From an uncultured bacterium (GTDB lineage: Bacteria > Patescibacteriota > Minisyncoccia > Phycocordibacterales > PALSA-1337), in NCBI GenBank assembly GCA_963848635.1, contig CAWKEA010000005.1:257526-321525 (forward strand): DNA of 64,000 nucleotides. The letters run 5' to 3'. Positions 1,875 to 30,342 of the stretch are shown here, in pieces (the first letter of the stretch is position 1; each line of letters starts with the position of its first letter). The translations under genes and the position numbers were made by a program. The notes below the pieces were generated by a model, which was not told the DNA's origin, ran no database searches, and saw only the letters and a list, made by a program, of their open reading frames with translations.

Positions 1875-3300
1875 TTAATAATAAACTTCAATGTTGAGAT
1901 CAACCTCATTACTGCTTCCCCTTCCGCCGGTATCGACGATGATCTTGTAATTTCCAGGCGTAGTAGCGGTTTGTTCATTCGACGGACATACAGCATTTGA
2001 AGTTAGGGGTATCAGACACAACTTGGAAGGCAAGACGAATGATATCTGGCTATTTCCTTGCGCGCTCGAAGGAATGCCTACCCATAGTACAGCCGAGTAA
2101 TTTCCGTTTGTTAGCCTGACTTCGGTCAAGTCAGTGGTGCTCGACATTCCCAAAGGGACAAAGTTATAGCCTGTGATCGTTATCGTATTGCCAACTTCAG
2201 CAATCGCAGGATATATCGAATTTATAACAGGAAATCCAGGATTTGAGAAGGAATTTGCTGCGGTTGTGTCAGCTGAATTCGTCTGTACGTTCATAGAATT
2301 CTGTTCATTGATCTGCTTATAGAAGCTAAATTTATCTATAGAGCTTGTCCCGAGAATCTGCGACTGAATTTTCCAAAGGAACGGCATGACCATAAAGATC
2401 AAAGCACCTATGATCATGAATACGACTAATATCGTCTTTCTGCTCTTGTGCTTGCTTGTGTCAGCGGCATTCGATACTATCCGACTCTCCTTTGCATTAA
2501 AGTAAAGCTCGAAATACACCAACATAAGCAGAGGATACACGAGTACCACCAATGCTCCGATGAGCGCAATCCCAAAGAGCACTCCGAATATGATCAGCAA
2601 GACTTCCAAATGCAGGATCGTCGCCAGGCCAAATGCTATAACAAAGAAAATCACTGATACGATCTCCGCTATCATAGCGACGAGACCACACAAGAGGCCG
2701 ATGAGCAGGATTTTACCGAATATGCTCCACCAGCGGTCCTTTACCAGAGACCAACTGCCGATAAGAGCATCGAAACCGCGCTTGCCATCAACCATAAACT
2801 CAAACTGACTGAAAAGAAGATATATAAGGAAGGCAATGGCCGGAATGATGAGGAGATATTCTCCGGCATAAAATATGAGAGTGGTTGCGACAGTCAATAC
2901 GAGAAATGGCCAAAATATCCTGATTCCTTGAATATGCGACTCCGATGCCTTGAAAGTCGCTTTTGTAGAGATCAGTGACGCCTCGAAGAAAAATGGCCAG
3001 GAAAAGAACGATGACCAGAAAAACACATCCGAGAGTAACCAGATAGAGCGGGCCTACGGCAGAAGCTGGAAAATTTCCTTGCTGGCCAGAGAATATCGTG
3101 TAAAAGAATCCTGCATACAGAAGAATGACTCCAATGGCACCGACACCGATAGTCGCCAGAGAGAGCGGCCACAATCTTTTGAAGAATAATTTATAGGAGG
3201 TCCATGCTTTTTCTACGATGATGACGGTCGGCAAGAGAGGTTTAAGAGGGATCGCTTGCAAAGCGGGAGCAACAGTATTCGATATATCCTGTGGGTTCAT
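1875..3300 (-). CDS. polytopic membrane protein with C-terminal IPT/TIG-like beta domain; apparent frameshift near 2925-2945
   Basis: Two overlapping minus ORFs (2800..3300 and 1875..3026) both look protein-like on either side of ~2930 (TM-rich segments). Joined they give a ~475-aa protein ending in an IPT/TIG-like segment (NPGFPVINSIYPAIAEVGNTITITGYNF...GNYKIIVDTGGRGSSNEVDLNIEVYY). Confidence 0.5.
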
Positions 3301-3504
3301 CGTTTTATTGGTTTTGAATAAGCGGTAATTGATTCACGTTGTTACCGCTCTTGATTTGTGCCTTGAGCTAAATGTGATTTTATATAGTCGAGTAATTGCT
3401 GGTTCATTTTGGTGTATTATTATTAATTTTCGTCGTTAATGACTTGACGATATAGTACAACGTATTGTTCTCTTAATCAATGCCCCTATTTTGCAAAAGT
3501 GGAC

Positions 3505-3911: not shown

Positions 3912-4788
3912 ATTGTGTTTCGATAAATTTTCGAATATGCTCGTTCCCACGTAGCGAGCGGATTTCCCGCACTACGCGAGTCCAAAGTTTGCAAATTCAT
4001 AGTCTCTCGAACTGTCAACATCTTTTGTAATACCTTTTTCGTCAGATGCTCTTTGCTTTCACCAAGCGATCAATCTGGCAGAAAATCTCGCAAATTCTTT
4101 TGCTTTGAAGCAATTGAAAAGGATTTTTCTTGAAGAAAGGATGATTATTTTACCAAGATATCCTATTGAGAACTTACCGAGTAGCAATAACATTGGCAAT
4201 GATTGGCGCGTTCTTCTTTTTGAAAGTAACACTTCGCCGCATTTCAATGATAATTCTGTCACATCGTTCCAAAGATCTCCTTGTCCCTTTCCTGCATCTT
4301 CATAGTGGAGTCATTTGGACACTCGACTCCTCATGCGTTATAAAGAAGACTTCCGATATTGACATAGAAGCAACCTTCACCATCGATAAGTCCGACAACA
4401 TAATCTGTTTGACACCTTTGGATTTGTGTCCTTCCCATGCGCTTATTATATCAAATTAAGTTGACGCATAGTACTACGACTCAGCTGACTTCTACATAAA
4501 TTTAATTATACTTTATCATTTTTGATAACAACGCATCAGATCTCCCGGGTCATTCATTTTTCTGTTCCAACCATCCTAATCAAGGTTTTCAACGGAAATT
4601 TCCCCTGACTCACCGCCCTTAGTTGGAGTCGTCATCGCCTTCTTTCTATCGGGCTGCCCTTTGCATCCCGGATCCTCCGAACATCCCCTCGCGGAAGATG
4701 TACTATCCTTTCGCTACTACCGCACTCATAAATCACGGAATGGATTTTAACAGCTAGATGACACGACTGCCAAGCGCATTGCATTCTG
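3912..4788 (-). mobile_element. intron-like insertion in 16S rRNA (between the 1392 block GACGGGCGGT and GTACAAG...GAACGTATTCACCG), probably a group I intron with a degenerate LAGLIDADG homing endonuclease ORF
   Basis: The conserved 16S sequence stops after gacgggcggt(attgtg) at ~3912 and resumes at ~4788 with tgagtacaagacttgagaacgtattcaccg. The ~875 nt between have no 16S homology. A minus-strand mini-ORF in them encodes MGRTQIQRCQTDYVVGLIDGEGCFYVNIGSLLYNA*, which carries a LAGLIDADG motif. Confidence 0.7.
4330..4438 (-). pseudogene. degenerate LAGLIDADG homing endonuclease remnant (first LAGLIDADG motif, premature stop)
   Basis: Minus-strand translation gives ...DYVVGLIDGEGCFYVNIG...; VGLIDGEGCF matches the LAGLIDADG/LAGFIDGEG consensus. 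The ORF is only 35 aa before its stop. Confidence 0.55.
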
Positions 4789-5874
4789 AGTACAAGACTT
4801 GAGAACGTATTCACCGCAGCGTGCTGATCTGCGATTACTAGCGATTCCGGCTTCATGAGGTCGAGTTGCAGACCTCAATCCGAACTGGCGCATCCTTTAG
4901 AGGGTTGGCTCCGCCTTTTATCGGCTTGGCGTCCTTTTGTAGATGCGATTGTAACACGTGTGTAGCCCAGGGTATCAGAGGGCCATGCTGACTTGGCGTC
5001 ATCCTCGCCTTCCTCCCACGATTCTGCTCGATCAAGTCCAATCCTAAGTCATAAAGTCTTAAGTTCGCATTCTTGATTTACTTTATGAACTTCCGATTGA
5101 ATGCAATCAAAATCGTGGGCAGTCTCGCCTGACATATATAACAGGCAACGAGGGTTGCGTTCGTTACCCCACTTAAGGGAACAATTCAAACCACGAACTG
5201 ACGACAGCCATGCAGCACCTGTCTAACTGCCTTGCGGCGACCAAAGTTTCCTCTGGTCTTCAGCTAGATTTCTAACCCTGGTAAGGTTTTTCGTTTGTCG
5301 TCGAATTGAACCACATGTTCCACCGCTTGTGCAAGTCCCCGTCTATTTCTTTGAGTTTTAACCTTGCGGTCGTACTACCCAGGCGGATCTCTTAACGCGT
5401 TAGCTACGGCTCGAGGAGGGTCGATACTCCTCAAACCAAGAGATCATCGTTTAGGGCGTGGACTACTGGGGTATCTAATCCCATTCGCTACCCACGCTTT
5501 CGTGTTTCAGCGTCAAGAATGCTCCAGTCTCCTGCCTTCGCTTTTGGTGTTCCCCATGATATCAACGCATTTCACCGCTACACCATGAGTTCCAGAGACC
5601 CCTCGCATCTTCTAGCTATGCCGTTTCCCGCGCAGGTCCCCGGTTGAGCCGAAGAATTTAACGCGAGACTAACACAGCCGCCTACACACCCTTTACGCCC
5701 AATAATTCCGGATAACGCTTGAGGCACTCGTATTACCGCTGCTGCTGGCACGAGTTTAGCAACCTCTTATTCATGAGCTCTTCAATAAACTTAGTCGCTC
5801 ATAAAAGGTTTTTACGTACCGAAGTACTTCATCAACCACGCGGCGTCGCTCCGTCAGGCTTTCGCCCATTGCGG

Positions 5875-5905
<31 letters not shown>

Positions 5906-6457
5906 ATGGACCGTGTCTCAGTTCCATCGGTGGGGGTCAGCCTCTCAGCTCCCCTAGACGTCATAGCCTTGGTAGGCCGTTACCCTACCAACTAGCTGAT
6001 ATCGAAAAGGCCGTTCCAAGGGCGAAAAAACTTTACCCTTCAGCCTTGCGGCTTCAGGGACTATCGGGAATTATCTAACCTTTCGGCTAGTTATGCCCGA
6101 CCCTTGGGGACGTACCTGATTATTACTACCTCGTCTGCCGGTGACCCTTGCGGATCCCCTAGACTTGCATGCCTTATCCACGCCGCCAGCGTTCATCCTG
6201 AGCTAGAATCAAACTCTATCAATAAATGAACGGAACAAAAGAGAAAACGCAAATTCGGCTTGTCTGCCGTGAGGCAGACCTGTGCCGACTTTCATAATCG
6301 CCAATGATCACTGTTTATTGATATCGTCCCATCCAGCTCGTAAATTATCGTTTATTATTTGGACTTGCTTTTATCTCAATCTTTTTTCAAGATTGTGTGT
6401 GAATTTCAATTTTCTAAATTTTCAAAGGGCCCAGCCCCCGTTTGGGACATGGGATGT

Positions 6458-26867: not shown

Positions 26868-26965
26868 GGGGTTATGATAGCATAAAAACTGGTAGAGTCG
26901 AAAACTTGTAAAGGTAAATTTGTGAGATATAATCTGAATAGAAAACGATTCCGAACATTATTGAT

Positions 26966-27121
26966 ATGAAGAAAAAGAAAATTCAAGCAAGCTCAAGCAG
27001 CAACTTAGAGCCTTGCGCCCATTGCCAGATCAAGCCTCGGAAGCCAAAAAGAAAATTCAAGGAGTACCCTTTTTGTTCCAAAGGTTGCGAGCAAGCCGAA
27101 CATCGCTTTGATTGTGAGTAA
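26966..27121 (+). CDS. small TRASH/FCS-like zinc-ribbon protein (51 aa; not in ORF track)
   Basis: MKKKKIQASSSSNLEPCAHCQIKPRKPKRKFKEYPFCSKGCEQAEHRFDCE carries C-x2-C ... C-x3-C. Upstream promoter TTGTAA-N16-TATAAT (26918-26948); strong terminator follows. Confidence 0.45.
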   Translation: MKKKKIQASSSSNLEPCAHCQIKPRKPKRKFKEYPFCSKGCEQAEHRFDCE

Positions 27122-27135
27122 AATTGAAACATTGC

Positions 27136-27167
27136 AAAGACCGCCTCACTGGCGGTCTCTTTTTTAT
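27136..27167 (+). terminator. rho-independent terminator (AGACCGCC-tcac-tGGCGGTCT + T6)
   Basis: aaagaccgcctcactggcggtctctttttt. Confidence 0.8.
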
Positions 27168-27289
27168 AAAGCTAAAAAGTTGGCAACTTTCTTGTCAACT
27201 TTTTAAAGTAGCAGGAAGTAACATCTGTACACTTTTTCAAAAGCTTCCGCACATTTCTACCTACATACCAAATACTTATATACTTTCAT

Positions 27290-28567
27290 TTATGAGTTCT
27301 TAAATGTTAAGATTTTTTTAAACCTCTCCTCATCCTTGTAGTTTCCAACGATAGCCAGGTTGAGATTTTTGTCAACAAATATCTTTTTGGCGACTTCGAG
27401 GACGTCGTCGGCAGTGACCGCGCGGATCTTGGCGATGGTCTCTTCGGGTGTCTTCACTTTTCCTTCCAACACTTCCCTGCCGCCGGCGTAGTTCGCCAAT
27501 GCATCAGACGTCTCGAGCGAGAGCATGATGTTGCCTGCGATGAAGTCCTTGATCTTGACGAGCTCGGCATCCGTGACTTTTTCACGCGTGGTGCGGGCGA
27601 GCTCGGCCAGGATGACTTTGATCGCCTCGTCGACGCGGGAATTGTCGACGCCGGCATCGACAGCAAAGATTCCATGATCAGTGTAGAGGTCGCTGTCGGC
27701 GCTCACGTAATAGCAGATGCCCATCTCGTTGCGCAGTTTGTCAAAGAGGCGCGAGCTCATGCCTTTGCCGAGAATGGCGGCGAGGACAGACAAGGCCGCA
27801 CGATACGGGCTATCGATCGGGAACGAGCGCACGCCGATGATGAGGTGCGACTGGTCGGTCTCCTTTAGACCGATCTGGACGCGAGGTCCATCCTGCTCTT
27901 CTTTTACTTTGACCTTCTCTTTCTTTTTCAAGGAAGAAATGCCTGCAAAGGATTTTTCGACGTCAGCCACTATCTTCTTCTCGTCGAAATGGCCTGAGAC
28001 GACCACCGTCGTTGCCTCTGCGACGTAGTGCGCGCTACGATATGCAACGACTGCGTCGCGAGTGAAGCTACGAACGTTCCCTTCGGTACCGGCGATATCC
28101 CAACCGACTGGCTGGTCGCCGTAGACAAGCTCAAAGAAGATGCGAGCCACCTTTGCCTGCGGCATGTCTTCGTACATACGGATCTCTTCGACAATGACGC
28201 CCTTCTCCTTTTCCATTTCAGCCGCATCGAGCAACGGATTGTTATAGAGGTCGGCCACGATGTCGAGCGCGAGGGCCGCGTGACGAGAGTCTACTTTTGC
28301 GTAATAACCGGTATATTCCTGGCTCGTAAACGCATTGTGCTGTGCGCCGATCGAATCGAACTCGCGCGATATGTCGGCAGACTTTGGCCTCCGCGGCGTG
28401 CCTTTGAAGACCATATGTTCAAGGAAATGCGAGATGCCGTTCTCTGCCTTGGTCTCATATTTCGAGCCAGCCGCAACCATGACGAGCACGGTGACTGACG
28501 GATTGTCGTTCATTGGGATCGTAATGACGCGGAGACCGTTTGAAAGAATAGTCTTATTAAACTTCAT
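27290..28567 (-). CDS. M16-family zinc peptidase (insulinase-like)
   Basis: The inverted zinc-binding motif GISHFLEHMVFKGT (HxxEH) sits near the N-terminus. 425 aa with the two-domain M16 architecture. Confidence 0.88.
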   Translation of the reverse strand: MKFNKTILSNGLRVITIPMNDNPSVTVLVMVAAGSKYETKAENGISHFLEHMVFKGTPRRPKSADISREFDSIGAQHNAFTSQEYTGYYAKVDSRHAALALDIVADLYNNPLLDAAEMEKEKGVIVEEIRMYEDMPQAKVARIFFELVYGDQPVGWDIAGTEGNVRSFTRDAVVAYRSAHYVAEATTVVVSGHFDEKKIVADVEKSFAGISSLKKKEKVKVKEEQDGPRVQIGLKETDQSHLIIGVRSFPIDSPYRAALSVLAAILGKGMSSRLFDKLRNEMGICYYVSADSDLYTDHGIFAVDAGVDNSRVDEAIKVILAELARTTREKVTDAELVKIKDFIAGNIMLSLETSDALANYAGGREVLEGKVKTPEETIAKIRAVTADDVLEVAKKIFVDKNLNLAIVGNYKDEERFKKILTFKNS

Positions 28568-28583
28568 TCAAACATTTTATCAA

Positions 28584-28616
28584 ATAATTTCTAATTGACC
28601 TAATTTCTAATTGACC
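28584..28616. repeat. left 28-bp inverted repeat (tandem TAATTTCTAATTGACC units) flanking the four-helix-bundle gene
   Basis: aatttctaattgacctaatttctaattgacc matches the reverse complement of 28969-28998 at 27 of 28 positions. Confidence 0.75.
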
Positions 28617-28622
28617 TAAAAA

Positions 28623-28967
28623 TTACTTCATTTTCTTGAATATGGCATTGAAGATTAGGTTCAACTCTTTTGCTTCAATCCACAATAATCTAGCCTTATC
28701 TCTCGTGCTTGGTGCCGCAGTGACAATCATTCTTAAAAAATGCTTTACTTCCCTTGATTCTTTTTTACATATACCGATCTTATGCTTGAAATCCGCTCTG
28801 CTCTCAGCATCATCAGCCTCACAATAATTTGCCCCAACAGAGGTGCCGCATTTCACCAACTGCCTTATAAGCGGCCTTGTTACGTCATCTTTATCCAATT
28901 TTCTACAAAAATTTATTATTGATTCACCGAACTTTGCAGTTCTTTCCTCAAGATCAAACTTTTTCAT
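28623..28967 (-). CDS. four-helix-bundle protein (TIGR02436 / '23S rRNA intervening-sequence protein' family)
   Basis: 114 aa. LIRQLVKCGTSVGANYCEADDAESRADFKHKIGICKKESREVKHFLRMI fits the family pattern (L..Q.......N..E......S...F.....I...E..E....L). The gene lies in the loop between the two IRs. Confidence 0.65.
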   Translation of the reverse strand: MKKFDLEERTAKFGESIINFCRKLDKDDVTRPLIRQLVKCGTSVGANYCEADDAESRADFKHKIGICKKESREVKHFLRMIVTAAPSTRDKARLLWIEAKELNLIFNAIFKKMK

Positions 28968-28968
28968 T

Positions 28969-28998
28969 AGTAATTAGAAATTAGGTCAATTAGAAATT
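28969..28998. repeat. right inverted repeat; overlaps the glyQS stop codon (encodes ...KISN*)
   Basis: taattagaaattaggtcaattagaaatt. The GlyRS terminal codons AAA ATT TCT AAT TGA are the reverse complement of 28986-29000. Confidence 0.75.
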
Positions 28999-30342
28999 TT
29001 ATCTGAAATATATTTAACTAAATCCTTTTCACTTATCCTCTCCTGCTTGCCAGAGTCCCTGTCGCGGACGGTCACACCTGCGTTCTTTTCGATGGTATCG
29101 AAATCGATCGTGACGCAGAACGGCGTGCCGATCTCGTCTTGGCGGCGATAGCGCTTGCCGATGTTGCCGTTGTCGTCGAATTCGACGGCTTTGAATTCTT
29201 TTTTGAGCGCTGCAGTAAACCTCCTTGGCCTTTTTGACCAATTCAGGTTTGTTTTTGAGCAAAGGAAATACGGCGACTTTGACCGGAGCCACTGACGGTG
29301 CGAGTCTGAGATATACCCTCTTCTCGCCGCCCATCTCGTCTTCGACATATGCCGAAGTGAGGACCGCCAAGACTGCCCTGTCTACGCCGACTGACGGCTC
29401 GATGACATGAGGGATGAAGCGTTGCTTGGTCTCTTCGTCGAAATATGAGAGATCGACGCCAGAGGTAGCGCTATGCGCTTTGAGGTCGAAGTCAGTGCGG
29501 TATGCAAGGCCATATAATTCCTTTTGACCAAAAGGATAGTCGAATTCTATATCAGTCGTCTTCTTTGAATAGTGCGAAAGCTCTTCTTTTGCATGATCGC
29601 GGAGATGGATCTTTTCCTTGGGCAAGCCGATCTCAAGGCACCAATCCATGCGGATCTTTTCCCAGATGTCGAATTGTTTCTCCCAGTCTTTCGGATCTAT
29701 GAAGTACTCGACTTCCATTTGCTCGAATTCGCGCGCACGAAAGAGATAATCGCGCGGAGCGATCTCGTTTCGGAATGCTTTGCCTATTTGTGCCAGGCCG
29801 AACGGTAGCTTTGGATGGAAGGAATCCATGATGTTCTTGAAATTGACGAACATGCCCTGCGCCGTTTCAGGACGGAGGTACGAGATGGAGTCTTCGCTCT
29901 CGACCGCGCCGACGGTCGTCTTGAACATCATGTTGAATTGACGCGCTTCACCGAGGGCGCCGCCACAATCCGGGCATTTCTTTGCGGCCAAAAGAGCAGG
30001 ATCGATCTGATCCTCACGAAAACGATGCTTGCATTTCTTGCACTCAACGAGCGGATCAGAAAATCCCCCGACGTGGCCAGAGGCGACCCATGCCTTGGAG
30101 TTCATCAGAATCGCCGCATCCATGCCAAACATATCGTCGCGATCCTCGACAAAGCGCTTCCACCAGGTGGCTTTTATATTATTTTTAAGAGCGACTCCAT
30201 ACGGCCCATAATCCCAAGTACCAGCTAAACCTCCATATATCTCCGAGCCTTGATAAATGAAGCCCCGGCGCTTGCAGAGAGAAATGATCGCTTCCATGAT
30301 GTCTGCCCCGTTGTTCTCCTTTTCTTTTTTCATAAACAGCAT
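28986..30342 (-). CDS. glyQS: glycyl-tRNA synthetase (alpha2 type), with an apparent single-base frameshift at ~29205-29225
   Basis: [49 protein letters not shown] (GlyRS N-terminus). The 437-aa ORF turns to nonsense after ...KAKEVY. The alternate frame continues [43 protein letters not shown]...[15 protein letters not shown], the conserved GlyRS anticodon-binding C-terminus (ORF 28986..29348). Confidence 0.85.

Follow-up and report, generated by a model that had tools for sequence, protein, structure and literature searches.

A four-helix-bundle gene enclosed by inverted tandem arrays in the last codons of glyQS: a candidate intervening-sequence-type cassette in a Patescibacteria genome

Why does the gene for glycine--tRNA ligase end within one arm of an inverted repeat that encloses another gene? 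This question was raised by a 64,000-nucleotide stretch of an uncultured Patescibacteria genome (assembly GCA_963848635.1, contig CAWKEA010000005.1, positions 257,526 to 321,525), hereafter the window, in which a small gene for a four-helix-bundle (4HB) protein sits at the 3′ end of glyQS. A reading made from the letters alone (the sequence-only reading) had proposed a mobile element of the intervening sequence (IVS) type known from 23S rRNA or, alternatively, an RNase III-cleaved stem that would uncouple glyQS from what is transcribed downstream. The whole inserted cassette was found to comprise 412 nucleotides (nt), 28586-28997 on the minus strand, within the last codons of glyQS. It was delimited by aligning its junctions with those of L002, a related species whose site is filled (also 412 nt, 3093-3504), and of three other relatives whose sites are empty (L166, L170, and L179), and its two ends are uncertain by 1-3 nt owing to A/T runs. 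The cassette also stood out as an AT-rich island, with a G+C content of 31-43% compared with 50-58% in the flanks.

The two arms, at 28586-28612 and 28972-28998, formed a 27-nt inverted repeat of 100% complementarity, or 27 matches in 28 positions with one base added, in agreement with the near-perfect 28-bp repeats of the sequence-only reading. The tandem units described there were found as well: the left arm holds two exact tandem copies of the 16-mer TAATTTCTAATTGACC (28585-28616), and with up to two mismatches allowed this 16-mer occurred three times in the window, always at the cassette, where 0.06 occurrences were expected. Between the arms lies an open reading frame (ORF) of 114 amino acids (aa) at 28623-28967 on the minus strand, the arms standing 4 nt upstream of its ATG and approximately 3-10 nt downstream of its stop. 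In gene orientation, the right arm (28972-28998, minus strand) is a 5′ array that reads AATT-T-CTAATT-GAC-CTAATT-T-CTAATT and continues to CTAATG at the start codon, and the left arm, followed to 28586-28619 on the same strand, is a 3′ array that reads TTAGGTC-AATTAG-A-AATTAG-GTC-AATTAG-A-AATT. Both agreed with what is found family-wide, namely a CTAATT array upstream of the ATG and an AATTAG array downstream of the stop. A look for further copies, also in 23S rRNA, had been suggested; within the 64 kb, neither a second copy of the repeat nor a second 4HB gene was found, and no 23S rRNA gene is present. A complete 16S rRNA gene lies at 4739-6224 (minus strand), so the rRNA genes of this organism are unlinked.

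The host gene, glyQS, occupies 28986-30342 on the minus strand, and its current stop is supplied by the 5′ array. As the sequence-only reading had stated, minus-strand positions 29000-28986 read AAA ATT TCT AAT TGA, which are the final codons of GlyRS (..K I S N) and the stop TGA (28986-28988). The 16-nt array unit, as read from its letters, contains stop codons in all three frames. On the other side of the cassette, a remnant of the ancestral glyQS 3′ end (28568-28585, minus strand; identified by the junction alignments) consists of ATT TGA TAA, with the old stop TAA at 28577-28579, and a 9-nt spacer before the ATG of a gene for an M16 (pitrilysin-family) peptidase. This M16 gene (27290-28567, minus strand) formerly began 9 nt after glyQS or overlapped with it, and the cassette now lies between the two.

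The downstream M16 peptidase served to rank relatives, whose contigs were then read at the glyQS-M16 junction. Two independent assemblies of this organism (L001 and L003) had the element at the same place. In L002, the site was filled at the identical nucleotide, with a 4HB protein 89% identical to that of the window and arms that matched at 26 of 28 positions. The M16 gene began only 9 nt after GlyRS in L166/L167, L170, and L179, and in the more distant L084, L095, L098, and L131 the GlyRS stop and the M16 start overlapped or nearly abutted. The window reads ..GAT AAA (412 nt) ATT TGA TAA AATGTTTGA ATG at this junction and L002 reads ..AGT AGA (412 nt) ATC TGT TAA TCTATCCCC ATG, compared with ..GAA AAA TTC CAA TAA ACTCTCCCC ATG in L166 and ..AAA AAG ATT TAA ATTTATCTC ATG in L170. 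These alignments therefore place the entry of the cassette two codons before the ancestral glyQS stop. Downstream of the cassette the old stop, the 9-nt spacer, and the M16 ATG all survive, and the new GlyRS C terminus, I-S-N-stop, is read from the array. The glyQS stop had been described as fused to the cassette; it appears so because the insertion lies two codons upstream of the old stop and the array gives a new one. A decayed state was observed in L178, where only a 5′ array remained (..AAA ATT TAT AAT TAA CCTAATCA..), with the same remnant of the glyQS end downstream of it. The comparison of glyQS 3′ ends, which the sequence-only reading had recommended, thus yielded three empty sites and one decayed remnant, and showed the cassette to be an insertion that close relatives lack.

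In the M16 tree, the two filled genomes fell in different subclades with the remnant L178 between them, and the states were scattered among empty ones. This pattern could reflect either an old insertion followed by several losses or repeated insertion at one nucleotide. Furthermore, the C-terminal domain of GlyRS (28989-29225) was closest to L166 and L170 (91 and 87%), whereas the N-terminal part (29236-30297) was closest to L164, L168, and L002 (95, 90, and 89%), a split that suggests recombination mosaicism adjoining the insertion site. Because the similarities of the two parts differ, homologous allele exchange might also account for the filled and empty sites.

Apart from the cassette, the glyQS-M16 junction was a hot spot for unrelated insertions. 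A reverse-oriented PemK/MazF-like gene was found there in L164, a 109-aa ORF with no Pfam hit and bounded by a perfect 18-nt inverted repeat in L168/L169, a 1.6-kb segment in L177, and an element with a large serine recombinase in L180. Within glyQS, an extra base at 29214 (A on the plus strand; T in gene orientation, ..GGTTTAC(T)GCAGCG..) was seen relative to L002 and to L003, the independent assembly of the same organism; as a result, GlyRS is spread over two ORFs, 29029-30342 and 28986-29348. An error of assembly or sequencing is the probable cause, or possibly the gene is a strain-specific pseudogene.

The cassette proved to belong to a large family. The 4HB protein had more than 8000 database homologues, the best of which shared 70-79% identity and came almost exclusively from Patescibacteria, and a GTDB scan with one genome per species recovered at least 527 relatives, of which 80 loci were read. 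They lie in genomes of Paceibacteria, Microgenomates, Doudnabacteria, and other groups, as well as in Bacteroidota and on one Ignavibacterium chromosome. CTAATT was restricted to the 60 nt before the ATG (approximately 200 occurrences at 75 loci) and AATTAG to the 80 nt that follow the stop (approximately 190 occurrences at 75 loci), over a background of approximately 0-2 per 20-nt bin. Units were spaced by 7 nt (171 times) or 9 nt (239 times) and rarely by 8 or 10, with T/A/C or AAC/GAC/ATT/GAT as spacers between CTAATT units, and the elements terminated as AATT-spacer-CTAATT... and ...AATTAG-spacer-AATT.

The upstream gene was co-oriented with the 4HB gene at 76 of about 80 loci, and its stop lay 0-20 nt before the first unit or within the array; both neighbors were co-oriented at 55 loci. 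Neighbor functions were unrelated, with 96 Pfam families among 70 upstream genes and 83 among 60 downstream genes. No reverse transcriptase or transposase recurred among these 130 neighbors, and no rRNA motifs were detected at the cassette in the 80 loci. Comparison of the loci thus showed the same gene-plus-inverted-array design recurring at unrelated operon junctions in many phyla. Of 156 array clusters, 30 were orphans with no adjoining 4HB gene, and several of these were hairpins of approximately 110 nt that kept the pre-ATG and post-stop segments and had lost the ORF (L002/L170, L033, L044, and L076). One such ORF-less hairpin occupies the 5′ untranslated region of glyQS itself in L002 (1583-1690), with an orthologue in L170 (931-1038), and is absent from the window, L164, and L168. 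Beside the L002/L170 hairpin, a word, AAGTCGAAAG, resembles the unit of another subfamily.

The same design was also found in other PF05635 subfamilies. In a contig of Candidatus Staskawiczbacteria (MHOT01000012; L038, 3388-5925), a single co-oriented operon held three cassettes, one from each of three PF05635 subfamilies, at three consecutive junctions. Their arms differed: the first had CTAATT units, the second a 52-nt inverted repeat with GAATCTYG-like units, and the third a 52-nt inverted repeat with AATTATCAATT-like units. At the M16-AI-2E junction of L168, a cassette approximately 20% identical carried GTCGAAAGT units. At the same junction of the window, the AT-rich spacer of 420 nt (26868-27289) contains a reverse-oriented 51-aa Cys-rich ORF (26966-27121, plus strand) with no Pfam hit and a terminator-like hairpin at 27138-27158, and the words AAGTTTTCGACTCTACC just 5′ of the AI-2E ATG resemble the 3′ array of this L168 cassette. 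The M16-AI-2E spacer of L170 holds the same small Cys-rich ORF and array remnant as the window.

A wider sample, drawn from genes annotated as four helix bundle protein or S23 ribosomal protein on plasmids of cultured organisms, revealed inverted tandem heptamers around such genes in Cyanobacteria, Alphaproteobacteria, and Bacteroidota, all unrelated to CTAATT. The heptamer was AATTCAA in Nostoc flagelliforme (L171), in a 31-nt perfect inverted repeat whose first unit contains the host stop TAA, and in Aulosira (L176), with approximately five units per side. It was TAATTCG in Dolichospermum (L174), where a helicase gene ends in the array of a 33-nt perfect inverted repeat, and TCGCAAG in Nostoc ATCC 53789 (L175), with approximately 15 units downstream. 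Further units were GGAGATA in Picosynechococcus (L181), between cas10/cmr2 and cmr3, AAAGGGA in Geminocystis (L182), the G+C-rich GGACRGA in Azospirillum (L183), and GGTTYAA in Riemerella (L184). Among six classical members sampled, one (L185) had no flanking repeat. In Pseudanabaena (L186), cas6 and the 4HB gene are separated by a long hairpin that an AAAGCTA array forms. The Dolichospermum and Nostoc ATCC 53789 proteins were 72% identical, yet their units were unrelated; therefore, what is conserved is the tandem structure of approximately 7 nt and the mutual complementarity of the arms, not the unit sequence.

The encoded protein is assigned to PF05635 (44 bits; cut-off, 33.8) and to TIGR02436 (64.3 bits; cut-off, 24), the family named by the sequence-only reading. 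Its AlphaFold2 model contained four helices (mean predicted confidence, pLDDT, 95), and Foldseek matched it to the stand-alone proteins 2RLD and 2GSC with template modeling (TM) scores of 0.83 and 0.82; phmmer detected 2RLD at E = 7.6e-14. Both homologues have five chains in the crystal. Among 33 sequences from different classes, 50 of the 114 positions were invariant. They included S43, N47, and E50, which correspond to the S-x3-N-x2-E part of the published helix-2 motif GxxRxxxSxxxNxxE (PMC3936711), and in this subfamily K39 stands in place of the upstream R. Four cysteines (C21, C40, C49, and C67) and two histidines (H62 and H76) were invariant or nearly so in the subfamily and not in classical PF05635 members, which hints at a metal site. 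The defense and phage family collections PADLOC and PHROGs gave no match for the cassette.

Folding of the window's sense transcript predicted a long-range helix of approximately 30 bp, which encloses the ORF and stops 2-4 nt short of the AUG (-112.6 kcal/mol, z = -3.9). The helix was present in both the minimum-free-energy and the centroid folds, and the L002 transcript behaved alike (z = -2.8); the fold-back stem anticipated for the locus is thereby borne out by prediction. A perfect 27-bp helix is a plausible RNase III substrate. Across 79 loci, duplexes between the 5′ and 3′ flanks had approximately -38 kcal/mol compared with -20 for shuffled sequences, and those between flanks of different loci had -36. 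An Rfam scan by E-value matched no known RNA family, and a consensus scan detected no sense-strand promoter inside the cassette. In Coxiella, a 28-bp stem around the S23p ORF of the 23S rRNA IVS has been shown experimentally to be excised by RNase III (PMC4990558). Precedents for such processing come from Coxiella, Leptospira, and Salmonella. A selected stem in the cassette is supported because covariation is seen at family scale and because the homologous Coxiella IVS undergoes this excision.

As to age, the 4HB genes of the window and L002 differed by a dN (nonsynonymous divergence) of 0.061 and a saturated dS (synonymous divergence) of approximately 2.3, with a dN/dS of approximately 0.03; the dN of the neighbors between the same genomes was 0.117 for M16 and 0.107 for AI-2E. 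Strong purifying selection on the protein is evident from these rates. Pairwise identity among 79 cassettes averaged 71% (5-95% range, 65-79), the most similar pairs were orthologues at the same host site (99, 93, 92, 89, 87, and 84.5%), and copies at different sites of the same genome had 75-87% protein identity. The G+C content at third codon positions (GC3) of the 4HB gene followed that of the host (r = 0.73, slope approximately 1) with a constant AT offset. As judged by these divergences, the cassettes were shown to be old residents that rarely moved, with no recent burst. One candidate for recent transposition, the identical copies in Nostoc flagelliforme, was rejected, as they fall within a larger duplicated plasmid segment. 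Even so, the conservation of the non-coding arrays between phyla, together with the empty sites and the ORF-less derivatives, points to horizontal spread and turnover.

The explanation that we favor, and hold to be fairly probable, is that of a long-resident, occasionally mobile IVS-type cassette that relies on operon read-through and an RNase III-cut stem and uses its arrays as cis ends. Such a cassette, of 400-500 bp, consists of a promoter-less 4HB (S23p/Avd-like) gene and inverted arrays of a short tandem unit, here CTAATT. The glyQS-M16-AI-2E operon received it in sense orientation, at a point two codons short of the former glyQS stop, and its 5′ array, with stops in three frames, now terminates GlyRS at ..ISN-stop. 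The 4HB gene would be transcribed by read-through from the host promoter, and the arrays would pair in the transcript into a stem of approximately 30 bp that encloses the ORF and abuts the start codon. By analogy with the homologous 23S rRNA intervening sequences, RNase III may cut this stem, and the cleavage would free the small mRNA and divide the glyQS cistron from that of M16. The arrays might double as cis-acting ends for rare movement or loss by a trans-acting mechanism. The mobile IVS-type element envisaged in the sequence-only reading is thus supported by the empty sites, the recurrence in 80 genomes, the ORF-less derivatives, the S23p/IVS fold, and the predicted stem.

Several observations weigh against this explanation. 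Within the CTAATT subfamily, the arms showed no element-specific covariation (complementarity of 34.8 within loci and 34.9 between loci, p = 0.51) and no bias toward G.U-compatible mismatches (66 versus 94). Since complementarity was equal within and between loci, pairing is guaranteed by the shared unit rather than maintained pair by pair, and selection for pairing is visible only at family scale. With regard to mobility, the 79 cassettes included no near-identical copies at different sites. No target-site duplication was found at 74 loci, the longest shared flank word being 4.95 within and 5.00 between loci. No enzyme for movement was found: the 4HB gene is the only ORF of the cassette, and there is no transposase among the neighbors. 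IMG/VR contained no relative of the 4HB protein, that is, no copies in viral contigs, and a purely selfish passenger would not usually keep its protein under strong, long-term purifying selection.

The main rival, possible but clearly less probable, holds that the arrays serve primarily to bind the cassette's own 4HB pentamer, on the DNA ends or on the mRNA, for autoregulation or end recognition, with the stem incidental. It accounts well for the conservation of a CTAATT core at a strict 7/9-nt spacing while the spacers vary freely, and for the lack of element-specific covariation and of a wobble signature. The number of units is suggestive as well: each array has approximately 3-5 of them (approximately 30-36 nt), and 2RLD and 2GSC crystallize as five chains. 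Furthermore, the structural relative Avd is a nucleic-acid-binding cofactor, and in the window the innermost unit overlaps the start codon (CTAATG). However, the 72%-identical proteins of Dolichospermum and Nostoc ATCC 53789 are flanked by the unrelated heptamers TAATTCG and TCGCAAG, and a binder of single-stranded RNA would be blind to the antisense 3′ array.

A bolder proposal, which we consider doubtful, is that PF05635 cassettes form a distinct mobile class. Their ends, arrays of approximately five 7-nt units, would be recognized or built by the pentameric Avd-like protein that they encode; movement and precise loss would proceed by a route that employs no transposase of a known family, for example, through a trans-acting reverse transcriptase or host recombination; and 23S rRNA IVSs would be one niche of the class. 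If so, the protein might be selected because the flanking essential genes depend on the handling of the stem, a "hostage" arrangement.

It is unlikely, in our view, that the cassette is a domesticated host module that no longer moves and serves, for example, to tune the relative stability or translation of the glyQS and M16 messages. Domestication would fit the 84-99% conservation of same-site orthologues, the GC3 ameliorated to the host, the dN/dS of approximately 0.03, stricter than that of the neighbors, and the lack of recent copies. It fits poorly with the patchy distribution, in which the closest relatives have no cassette, with the functionally unrelated host neighbors, with non-coding arrays conserved across phyla and ORF-less derivatives, and with the unrelated insertions taken up by the same junction.

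An origin of the 4HB gene in a diversity-generating retroelement, as its Avd component or as what is left of such an element, is very improbable and largely refuted. PF05635 is the family of Avd, a pentameric protein that binds nucleic acid and reverse transcriptase (PMC10053308), and Foldseek aligned the model with Avd structures (4DWL and 8UB7) at TM scores of 0.65-0.72. However, the 4HB protein, though of the same four-helix-bundle superfamily, is less similar to Avd than to the stand-alone S23p proteins, which gave the best structural matches. Moreover, the window has no adjoining reverse transcriptase, template repeat, or variable repeat, and RVT_1 did not recur among the 70 upstream and 60 downstream neighbor genes. 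Finally, chance, a local duplication, or a classical insertion sequence (IS) or miniature inverted-repeat transposable element (MITE) with the 8-bp target duplication GATAAAAT, which does flank the element on either side in the window, is refuted, as the repeat is family-wide, shared flank words are equal within and between the 74 loci, and in alignment the downstream GATAAAAT falls on the old stop region in L002 and at the empty sites and is thus ancestral sequence.

When set beside known systems, the cassette resembles repetitive extragenic palindromes and bacterial interspersed mosaic elements (REP/BIME) and MITEs in having short inverted repeats that lie just after the stops of co-oriented genes and form mRNA hairpins, and its ORF-less derivatives look similar to MITEs. 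It differs from them in carrying a conserved non-transposase gene; terminal inverted repeats are present, but a REP-associated tyrosine transposase (RAYT) or other transposase, a target-site duplication, and many near-identical copies are not. The short tandemly repeated repetitive (STRR) sequences of heterocystous cyanobacteria offer another parallel, for the cyanobacterial relatives of the cassette are likewise flanked by tandem heptamers (AATTCAA, TAATTCG, and TCGCAAG). Canonical STRR heptamers differ from those that flank the cassettes. The connection of PF05635 genes with STRR-like arrays was observed in the present analysis. Stand-alone TIGR02436 genes, such as BT_0352 (2RLD) and XCC0516 (2GSC), match the 4HB gene in sequence and fold and sit tightly between operon genes, and 4HB-type genes have been noted inside cas operons (PMC3936711). 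The literature searched treats them as of unknown function and does not describe arrays, stop adjacency, empty sites, or ORF-less forms.

The closest counterpart is the 23S rRNA IVS with an S23p ORF, known from Leptospira, Coxiella burnetii, and Xanthomonas, which encodes a protein of the same PF05635 family in approximately 400-450 nt. Like the cassette, it occurs sporadically, is AT-rich relative to its host, and holds its ORF in the loop of a stem formed by terminal inverted repeats of approximately 28 bp; in the window, the enclosing complementary termini are represented by the 27-nt perfect repeat and the predicted helix. Unlike the IVS, the cassette has as its host the 3′ end of a protein gene in an operon, not helix 25 or 45 of 23S rRNA; its arms are tandem arrays of a short unit, one of which supplies the host stop codon; and its ORF is under strong purifying selection, whereas that of the Coxiella IVS is decaying. 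The element is not classed as an rRNA IVS, since it lies between glyQS and M16 and not within a 23S or 16S rRNA gene, the defining location. Nevertheless, it has the same anatomy and probably works alike at the RNA level. A mobile origin of rRNA IVSs has been suspected since 1993 (PMC4990558), and a few 23S_rRNA_IVP ORFs have been reported in rRNA inserts of the candidate phyla radiation (PMC11270868). The cassette class is very widespread and apparently undescribed: our literature search, whose coverage was incomplete so that an earlier report is possible, returned no description of tandem arrays, stop-adjacent placement, empty sites, or ORF-less derivatives.

For annotation, the arrays matter in that they rewrite host C termini and stops, break translational coupling, and may add RNase III sites to housekeeping operons, and thousands of natural variants, with filled and empty sites and ORF-less forms, provide material to test the function of the 4HB protein and the movement of the cassettes. 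The origin and purpose of rRNA IVSs and their S23p ORFs have been open questions since approximately 1990. Our data suggest that rRNA IVSs are part of a far larger population of operon-junction cassettes, which occur in many phyla and are particularly numerous in the small Patescibacteria genomes; the classic 23S rRNA intervening sequences seem to be a special case within this population.

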